Assembly (NCBI RefSeq): GCF_051903065.1
Contig: NZ_CP178438.1
Direction: 5' to 3' (one strand)
Length of the DNA stretch: 64,000 nt
Source of the DNA: Escherichia coli
GTDB lineage: Bacteria; Pseudomonadota; Gammaproteobacteria; Enterobacterales; Enterobacteriaceae
This document shows positions 42,035 through 44,304 of the stretch, piece by piece. A program made the translations under genes and the position numbers. Under the pieces are notes generated by a model, which saw nothing but the letters and a program-made list of their open reading frames with translations, ran no database searches and was not told the origin of the DNA. How positions within the stretch are numbered: the stretch's first letter is position 1; each line of letters starts with the position of its first letter.

Positions 42035-44304
42035 GTGTGCCCGGAGTTCAGGGCGGGCATGGATGCTTAAATGAACCGCGAGTCTGTCTGGAATATTGAA
42101 CCGGTAACTCACGATGAGAAACCCAACAATCCCACCGGGTGTGACGGTGGAGAACCTGAGCGGCAGTGACCTGCGGCATGCCCGCAGGGTGATGTAACCC
42201 GCTGACAACGGGGATTGAGGCGAGATCACTAAGCCGAGATGATCCTCAAGGTTAAGTACTGAAAGGCTGAAGAACATGAACCCGTTAATCCGCCTCTGTG
42301 GGTTGAAAACGTCACCACGGCCTACGTGATCTGACAGGCCGTGCAGGAGGAACTGGCAGTAATACGTAAGCACTGCCGGTCGAAGGTGTTTTGACATGTA
42401 TGCGAAACACCGGGGCAGCAGCGTCTATCACGCTTGCGTTGCTGACTTCTGCCAACTTGCGGCAAGCAAGGATAAAGAGTGCGACGGGCAGCCTCCTCAG
42501 TATGCCTGAGTCCAGGCAGGTAAACCGGGGAAGGTCAGCGACGGATGTTAAGGGGGCATGGCTCCGATGACGCGCTGGCTGGCGGAGCTTCCGTAGTAGT
42601 CCGCGATGGGGAAAGCCCATTACATGGCGAAGGGAAGCAGTTTGAATGTGTTTGCGACGTGAATTAACTGACCTAACGAGGTGAAGACCTTTGATAATCA
42701 GCGAAATGCAACGCAAGCTTGCCACATGGGCAGTCACCGATCCGTCCCTACGGATTCAACGGCTGCTGCGTCTGATAACACAACCAGAATGGCTGGCTGA
42801 AGCGGCGCGGATCACGCTTTCATCAAAGGGGGCCCATACCCCCGGCGTTGATGGCGTGAACAAAACAATGCTACAGGCCAGACTGGCTGTTGAGCTGCAA
42901 ATCCTCAGGGATGAATTACTCTCAGGCCACTACCAGCCCTTGCCCGCCAGACGGGTTTACATCCCTAAAAGCAACGGCAAACTGCGACCACTGGGTATCC
43001 CCGCGTTGCGGGATCGTATTGTTCAGCGGGCCATGCTGATGGCGATGGAGCCGATATGGGAGAGTGATTTTCATACGCTCTCATATGGCTTCCGGCCTGA
43101 GCGCAGTGTCCACCACGCTATCCGCACGGTGAAATTACAGCTCACAGACTGTGGTGAAACCCGGGGACGCTGGGTGATTGAAGGCGACCTGTCCAGTTAC
43201 TTCGACACCGTACATCATCGACTGCTGATGAAGGCTGTACGCCGCAGGATCAGTGACGCACGTTTCATGACTCTGCTGTGGAAAACCATCAAGGCGGGAC
43301 ATATCGATGTCGGTCTCTTTCGGGCGGCCAGTGAAGGTGTGCCACAGGGCGGTGTTATATCGCCGCTATTATCGAACATCATGCTGAATGAGTTCGATCA
43401 ATACCTGCATGAGCGCTACCTGAGCGGGAAAGCCAGAAAAGATCGGTGGTACTGGAATAACAGTATCCAACGGGGCCGAAGTACGGCGGTCAGAGAAAAC
43501 TGGCAGTGGAAACCCGCGGTGGCGTACTGCCGCTATGCCGATGATTTTGTCCTCATCGTCAAAGGCACCAAAGCACAGGCGGAAGCCATCAGGGAGGAGT
43601 GTCGGGGTGTGCTCGAAGGCAGTCTGAAACTCAGGCTGAACATGGATAAGACTAAAATCACCCATGTTAATGACGGCTTTATCTTTCTGGGGCACAGGAT
43701 CATTCGCAAACGCAGTCGTTATGGCGAGATGCGAGTGGTCTCAACGATCCCGCAGGAGAAAGCCAGAAACTTCGCCGCATCGCTGACAGCACTGTTATCA
43801 GGCAACTACAGTGAAAGCAAAGTCGATATGGCTGAACAACTCAACCGAAAACTGAAAGGCTGGGCCATGTTCTATCAGTTCGTTGATTTTAAGGCCAAAG
43901 TCTTCAGTTATATCGACCGTGTCGTGTTCTGGAAGCTGGCTCACTGGCTGGCCCGCAAATACCGTACAGGTATCGCTTCCCTGATGAGGTGGTGGTGTAA
44001 ATCACCGAAACCGGGTCAGAGCAAAACGTGGGTTTTATTTGGTAAAACCAATCACGGCAAGCTCAGCGGCGAAATACTGTACCGGTTGGTGGGGCAAGGC
44101 AAGAAGCTGTTCCGCTGGCGGCTACCCGAAGGTAATCCCTATCTGAGGACGGAGACCAGAAACACGTATACATCGCGCTTTACAGAAGTGGCAATGGCGT
44201 TCGCCAGCATTTAAATGGAGAGCCGGATGCGCTGAAAGGTGCACGTCCGGTTCGGGGAGGAGAGGCAGGGAAATAGTCCGACTACGCCCTGCCTCTTACT
44301 CTAC
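42035..44304 (+). mobile_element. Group II intron (2270 bp)
   Basis: 5' GUGUG at 42035, 3' end ...AC at 44304, domain V-like GAGCCGGATGCGCTGAAAGGTGCACGTCCGGTTC at about 44220-44255, internal RT/maturase ORF. Confidence 0.8.
42691..44214 (+). CDS. Group II intron-encoded reverse transcriptase/maturase
   Basis: 507-aa ORF with RT motifs including YADDFVL and maturase (X) domain. Confidence 0.9.

Follow-up and report, generated by a model that had tools for sequence, protein, structure and literature searches.

A probable intact copy of the mobile group II intron E.c.I4 in the ISEc31 transposase gene of an Escherichia coli chromosome

The window analysed here is a stretch of 64,000 nucleotides (nt) from an Escherichia coli chromosome (contig NZ_CP178438.1, assembly GCF_051903065.1). 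It contains a group II intron at 42035-44304 (+), 2,270 nt long, which lies in sense orientation in the transposase gene of ISEc31, within its orfB part; ISEc31 is an insertion sequence (IS) of the IS3 family. From sequence comparison we read this segment as E.c.I4, a mobile group II intron, present as an intact copy at its usual target in ISEc31 orfB, with a probability of about 0.93. E.c.I4 in ISEc31 is an already known, published combination and an ordinary finding for this window. The question posed by the window intron can be regarded as settled because this is an already catalogued intron at a published homing site.

Intron boundaries and identity

The original prediction, made from the sequence alone, was that a group II intron interrupts orfB of an IS911-family element and that its removal restores the reading frame. 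Sequence and translation confirm that the orfB frame is broken after VWCGDITY (42034) and resumes 2270 bp further on. The gene is divided as follows.

41602-42034 (+): orfB exon 1, ending ...VWCGDITY, with the predicted intron-binding sites IBS2 (about 42023-42028) and IBS1 (42029-42034); from translation and pairing
44305-44783 (+): orfB exon 2, IWAGNRW...VANIT and a stop codon, encoding the second Asp and the Glu of the DDE triad; from translation

The first intron bases after exon 1 are GTGTGCCCGG, and the last bases of the insert are CTCTTACTCTAC, finishing ...CTAC at 44304. The GUGUG start (42035-42039) and the AC end (44303-44304) were both as predicted and are of the form 5′ GUGYG and 3′ AY. 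In-silico removal of 42035-44304 gave TAT-ATC-TGG across the junction and left orfB open to the stop at 44783; the OrfAB protein made after such an excision would hold an intact DDE triad. A 120-nt piece of this in-silico spliced junction was searched against 5,426 complete E. coli genomes. Many other E. coli genomes contain the uninterrupted junction, or empty site, at 100% identity; most of the query is present in 2,059 records, and the best match reaches at least 99% in 508. The boundaries are exact because the empty site is matched at 100% identity and a shift of one base does not reproduce it. The restoration of TAT-ATC-TGG that had been proposed is hence upheld by the deletion and by naturally empty sites.

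The window intron is 100% identical over its 2,270 nt to NC_009790:12712-14981, on plasmid pETEC_74 of strain E24377A. Table S3 of Leclercq & Cordaux 2012 (PMC3522654) enters the interval NC_009790:12712-14982 as E.c.I4-27, a copy with 99% identity to the reference. E.c.I4 is the name used in the Zimmerly database and is credited to Dai & Zimmerly 2002 (as cited in PMC3522654). An intron takes the name of a catalogued one with which it shares >95% nucleotide identity (rule quoted in PMC3552965), and the window intron is E.c.I4 by this rule. Comparison with the catalogued E. coli group II introns, which had been suggested along with the prediction, therefore returned E.c.I4 as the match, at 100% to E.c.I4-27. 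The literature on E.c.I4 reports it at specific positions in IS629, IS911, ISEc16 and ISEc31, and the window copy agrees with the published site: its host is ISEc31 and, like other copies, it follows the D-I-T-Y motif, here one nucleotide past the Tyr codon of W-x-x-D-I-T-Y. E.c.I4 is near-identical to S.f.I1 of Shigella flexneri. The window intron is the same element in the same kind of host, with the same endonuclease-less class A protein, and we see no substantive difference; it is one more copy on a chromosome, within an island situated downstream of the tRNA-Leu(CAA) gene.

The intron is common in the species. A match is present in 2,668 of the 5,426 complete genomes, and 1,873 of them have a copy covering at least 80% of it. 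Many E. coli chromosomes and plasmids carry copies 100% identical to the window intron, and a single genome can have matches in as many as 20 places. This exact identity to many dispersed copies argues for recent mobility of the sequence, and it bears on the reading that the window holds a dead relic, inherited with the island and no longer splicing or moving. Such a relic would suit the distribution of the locus, which with an identical copy of the intron's ltrA gene is otherwise found in strain GDSC2BY4G and about three other complete genomes; a locus common to only about four genomes points to an insertion that was inherited rather than fresh. It would also suit the surroundings, a graveyard of IS pseudogenes. 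Against it stand the identical copies on many unrelated chromosomes and plasmids, which imply recent activity, together with the full-length open reading frame (ORF), whose product is identical to WP_001189123.1, and a conserved fold in which no helix is disrupted. We consider a dead relic very unlikely. In the RefSeq annotation of GDSC2BY4G, ltrA stands between two "incomplete" IS3-family pseudogenes.

Ribozyme, encoded protein and target recognition

The Rfam model Intron_gpII (RF00029) matches 44218-44304 with 64.9 bits (E=2.7e-11), above its gathering score of 40. This match comprises domains V and VI and stops exactly at the proposed 3′ splice site, and the 3′ end of the intron, UACUCUAC, is conserved in relatives. 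For the 5′ part we relied on comparison. Relatives of the intron-encoded protein (IEP) were fetched from one genome per species, which gave 191 loci, and 80 were kept. A profile-HMM for the 5′ ends of the introns missed the distant ones, and a GTGYGCC motif near the expected position was used to set their boundaries. An RNAalifold consensus of 61 non-redundant 5′ regions from these relatives gave the fold of domains I to III, and also reaches the start of domain IV, which holds the ORF. Double-sided compensatory changes occur in 104 of the 181 consensus pairs, and most helices are at least 90% canonical. The predicted domains of the window intron are listed below.

42040-42529 (+): domain I (intron 6-495), with a closing stem of 6-10 and 491-495; RNAalifold consensus of 61 relatives
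about 42530-42583 (+): domain II (intron about 496-549); consensus fold with covariation
42587-42638 (+): domain III (intron 553-604); consensus fold with covariation
44220-44253 (+): domain V, with AGC triad, GAAA tetraloop and 2-nt bulge; RF00029 alignment and fold
44255-44302 (+): domain VI; its bulged A at 44298, 7 nt from the 3′ splice site, is the predicted branch point; fold

The window copy fits the consensus fold; no conserved helix is disrupted and we found no defect. All six domains can be placed, I to III by the consensus of 61, IV as the domain of the ORF, and V and VI by Rfam. The domain V-like hairpin noticed earlier is the one at 44220-44253, within the RF00029 match. The supposition that the intron is intact agrees with its full-length ORF and complete conserved fold, and the call of a group II intron in orfB is supported by domains V and VI, the encoded protein, the empty site and the conserved fold.

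The encoded protein is a reverse transcriptase (RT)/maturase, as predicted.

42706-44214 (+): ltrA, RT/maturase WP_001189123.1, 502 amino acids (aa) from an ATG start, in domain IV; RefSeq

RefSeq already annotates ltrA here with this identical product. The 507-aa protein of the original prediction corresponds to an alternative TTG start (ORF 42691-44214), and its YADDFVL motif is present at residue 282, with YADD encoded at 43534-43545. Pfam finds RVT_1 (2.2e-34) and GIIM (1.3e-10) in the IEP and no HNH or other endonuclease (En) domain. TIGR04416, the NCBI equivalog for group II RT/maturases, scores 341 bits against a cutoff of 300. An RT element of another kind, such as a retron, a DRT or an Abi-type defence RT, could be imagined to interrupt the IS, and the IEP does match NCBIfam retron and DRT RT models through the shared RT fold. 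These matches stay below threshold: they reach 18-54 bits where 200-600 are required. TIGR04416, by contrast, passes its own cutoff, and the IEP has the maturase domain GIIM. The segment also bears the hallmarks of a group II intron, namely domains V and VI, GUGUG...AC ends, a host ORF that excision restores exactly, and an empty site. The domain scores and these hallmarks refute a retron, DRT or Abi-type element, and we give it next to no weight.

The RefSeq gene name derives from LtrA of Ll.LtrB (class ML/IIA), the model mobile group II intron, which shares with E.c.I4 the RT and maturase architecture of its protein and the general logic of ribonucleoprotein retrohoming. LtrA has DNA-binding and endonuclease domains and primes from the cleaved bottom strand, whereas the IEP in the window ends shortly after domain X, without an HNH domain. 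E.c.I4 and S.f.I1 have been placed in ORF class A, a class that has no DNA-binding/endonuclease (D/En) region (Toro and Martinez-Abarca 2013, PMC3552965). The window protein has the features of this class: Pfam detects no HNH domain, and there are no Cys pairs in its C-terminal 80 aa. By the published placement of E.c.I4 and by its En-less IEP, the window intron is assigned to ORF class A.

Base pairing with the last bases of exon 1 had been named as a check on the prediction, and two exon-binding sites (EBS) can be proposed.

42397-42402 (+): EBS1 (intron 363-368), 5′-UGUAUG-3′, in the loop of hairpin 42385-42411; from covariation
42189-42195 (+): probable EBS2 (intron 155-161), 5′-GUGAUGU-3′, on the 3′ side of an internal loop; from conservation

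EBS1 pairs with exon positions -1 to -6 at 6/6 positions in the window, two G-U pairs included. It was located by an unbiased scan in which every exon position was compared with every domain I alignment column over 61 intron/target pairs. The best partner of exon -2 is intron 364, with the top mutual information, 97% of pairs formed and four pair types; exon -1 pairs best with intron 363; and covariation across the relatives is seen at exon -1, -2, -3 and -5. One relative (L060) has the target CGTGGT, with Trp in place of Tyr, and a loop reading GCCACG, a perfect match reached through double compensatory changes. On this covariation EBS1 is assigned to 42397-42402, in what we call hairpin 2. 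Another candidate, at about intron 260, gave no covariation (permutation 1057/5000). Hairpin 1 (about intron 328) and hairpin 2 (about 363) were inseparable as EBS1 candidates with 21 sequences (61 and 48 of 5000), and hairpin 1 was rejected when the 61 pairs and the unbiased scan favoured hairpin 2. Hairpin 1 (42351-42380, intron 317-346) has the loop UAAUACGUAAGCA and an EBS1-like xGUAxG motif that is conserved in the 61 relatives. The candidate EBS2 at 42189-42195 is complementary to exon -6 to -12, with six of the seven positions paired in 55-61 of the 61 relatives, and it has a G opposite both synonymous Y positions; it is probably EBS2. The hairpin 1 loop (GUAAUA, 42359-42364) was dropped as an EBS2 candidate, since most of its positions pair in only 17-39 of the 61 relatives.

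Opposite the synonymous positions -1, -2, -5, -8 and -11, E.c.I4 has U, G, U, G and G, each able to form a wobble pair. The same intron sequence pairs 6/6 with the IBS1 of ISEc31 (CGUAUA) and 5/6 with that of the IS629/IS1203 type (CUUACG), which differs from it at three of six bases. Having G or U opposite the synonymous positions of GAY-ATY-ACN-TAY-R would explain how one intron occupies several IS3-family elements. That such wobble-tolerant guides are an adaptation for following a protein motif is our own, uncertain suggestion from these pairings.

We infer the following course of splicing, mobility and priming for E.c.I4. Transcription of the IS would yield an RNA that folds into the six-domain ribozyme, and the RT/maturase would aid its excision as a lariat, with the bulged A at 44298 as branch point. 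The resulting particle of lariat and protein would then reverse-splice into other DNA copies of the same motif, targeted by pairing of EBS1 (UGUAUG) with exon -6 to -1 and probably of EBS2 (GUGAUGU) with exon -12 to -6. Priming of cDNA presumably starts from nascent strands at replication forks. Group II introns without an endonuclease prime from replication-fork strands, and this route would be expected here because the IEP has no endonuclease.

The host element ISEc31 and its surroundings

The host of the intron was originally taken for an IS911-family element. Its membership in the IS3 family stands: NCBIfam transpos_IS3 scores the spliced OrfAB at 357 bits against a cutoff of 160. It is not IS911 itself: proteins with the NCBI name "IS3-like element ISEc31 family transposase" share 96-99% identity with the spliced OrfAB. 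On these identities ISEc31 is a relative of IS911, and "IS911-family" is right only loosely, in that both are members of the IS3 family. The ends of the element, set by alignment to an uninterrupted copy (L002), are TGTAGTGG...CCACTACA, and its parts are as follows.

41264-44791 (+): ISEc31 (IS3 family) with the intron, 1,258 bp without it; alignment to the uninterrupted copy
41264-41289 and 44766-44791: terminal inverted repeats of ISEc31, 26 bp, imperfect, TG...CA
41336-41647 (+): ISEc31 orfA; ORF listing
41596-41602 (+): A6G -1 frameshift site (AAAAAAG), joining orfA and orfB

A programmed frameshift is annotated by RefSeq in the uninterrupted ISEc31 copy. The practical value of the finding lies in annotation: the two pseudogenes flanking ltrA, each labelled "incomplete IS3 family transposase", are the exons of a single ISEc31 gene.

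The 44 differences within the IS between the window element and the uninterrupted copy are unevenly spread: 42 fall in the first 563 bp (41264-41826), and only two in the remaining intron-free sequence (41827-44791), around and after the homing site. This clustering indicates that the host IS is mosaic relative to that copy. Co-conversion during retrohoming was set aside as the source of the mosaicism, since 99%-identical transposases of this variant exist elsewhere. The Rfam family isrC, a Salmonella "Hfq binding RNA", has a full-length match of 150 bits at 41332-41454, within the 5′ end of ISEc31 orfA, so this sRNA family seems to represent a piece of a transposase gene of the IS3 family.

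To the left of ISEc31, within 40010-41263, lies a short remnant of another IS3-family gene (about 41094-41263), and upstream of that a frameshifted IS110-family pseudogene on the minus strand. The IS elements nested here are decayed, and the region was rearranged at some time after the insertion. The uninterrupted copy has a 3-bp duplication, CTT, on both sides, and the window element has none. The missing duplication does not argue against IS3 membership. A tRNA-Leu(CAA) gene is found at 18845-18929, and the IS-rich, island-like region with the intron lies downstream of it. Upstream of this tRNA gene, at 11629-11802 and 12636-12830, there are two tandem matches to naRNA4 (REP-type) and one to the antisense RNA Ysr276.

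Several points weigh against an intact, mobile E.c.I4 at this place. No experimental splicing or mobility data for E.c.I4 turned up in the searchable literature, and a promoter scan found no consensus sigma-70 promoter above background at the left end of the IS. The window ISEc31 lacks a 3-bp target-site duplication, with TAA (41261-41263) on one flank and CCT (44792-44794) on the other; its neighbourhood must therefore have been rearranged since insertion, and the element may lie outside its original context. In the guides, the candidate EBS2 is nearly invariant, with its central position -10 paired in only 25 of 61 relatives, and the second EBS1-like loop, in hairpin 1, does not track variant TGG-type targets as EBS1 does.

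Relatives of the intron and consequences for insertion sequences

The 80 relatives that were kept have IEPs 66-96% identical and come from gamma-, alpha- and betaproteobacteria, Nitrospira and others. All 61 distinct intron/target pairs, that is, all relatives that could be resolved, are inserted after GAY-NTN-ACN-TAY-N. The insertion point is one base after the Tyr codon of W-x-x-D-x-T-Y, the motif to which the first catalytic Asp of DDE transposases belongs. Most of the interrupted genes are of the IS3 family, and five independent upstream exons all stop at profile position ~225. Elsewhere, L012 interrupts an IS6-family gene (145 bits, above cutoff), L036 an IS481-like one and L030 a member of the IS66 family. 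Class A was described in 2013 as three near-identical members (PMC3552965) and in a 2020 paper as two introns. E.c.I4 could be the tip of a large, barely described class A lineage that homes to D-x-T-Y across at least four IS families and many phyla and reads the protein motif through wobble guides; we put this forward tentatively, with the balance somewhat against it. Within this proposal the motif-specific insertion of the 61 relatives is itself solid, and the unpublished status of the lineage and the adaptive nature of the wobble are uncertain.

Six of the relatives (L004, L016, L023, L033, L066 and L070) make up whole contigs of 2.24-2.32 kb, almost exactly the length of the intron, in draft genomes of Kluyvera, Pseudoalteromonas, Paraglaciecola, Nitrosomonas and Novosphingobium. 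Contigs of intron length are what an assembler leaves when it collapses a multi-copy repeat. Two others (L005 and L006) are identical intron-bearing stretches on contigs of ~13.8 kb assigned to "Citrobacter sp. 18056" and "Chryseobacterium sp. 18061", from the same study, which suggests cross-contamination or a very recent transfer; their target is GAC-GTC-ACC-GAT-G, outside a clean ORF. In Halomonas ventosae (L080), the EBS1 loop GCCAAG fits the TGGT-type targets of the close relatives L060 and L064, and the actual site is CCTACA. This may be an ectopic, non-cognate insertion.

The original prediction held that the transposase would still be expressible if the intron splices. Expression after splicing is possible in principle, given the sense orientation of the intron and the intact OrfAB predicted after excision. 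We give even odds to the alternative that the intron is active as a retroelement with negligible exon ligation and that it silences this copy of ISEc31, a reading that rivals the consequence for expression and not the identity of the intron. The best-studied IS-borne intron without an endonuclease is RmInt1 of Sinorhizobium meliloti, which likewise interrupts an IS transposase gene, in ISRm2011-2, and is guided by EBS/IBS pairing. Its exon ligation in vivo is 0.07 +/- 0.02%, and it is highly mobile. A 2021 review describes RmInt1 splicing as almost completely abolished with mobility retained, and suggests that such introns restrain other mobile elements. The RefSeq treatment of both IS halves in the window as pseudogenes also fits negligible ligation. 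RmInt1 differs, however, in being a class D, IIB3 intron with another target motif and with splicing and mobility that have been measured, and its behaviour may not transfer to the class A intron E.c.I4. Moreover, the splicing elements of E.c.I4 are all intact and conserved, and nothing in the sequence prevents exon ligation.

An intron lineage that always lands on the catalytic motif of transposases is a natural antagonist of insertion sequences, or a passenger of them. If exon ligation by E.c.I4 is as poor as that of RmInt1, each insertion disables one copy of an IS. The G/U-rich guides suggest how a single ribozyme may follow a protein motif through synonymous variation, and guides of this wobble-tolerant kind could help in the design of broad-range targetrons.

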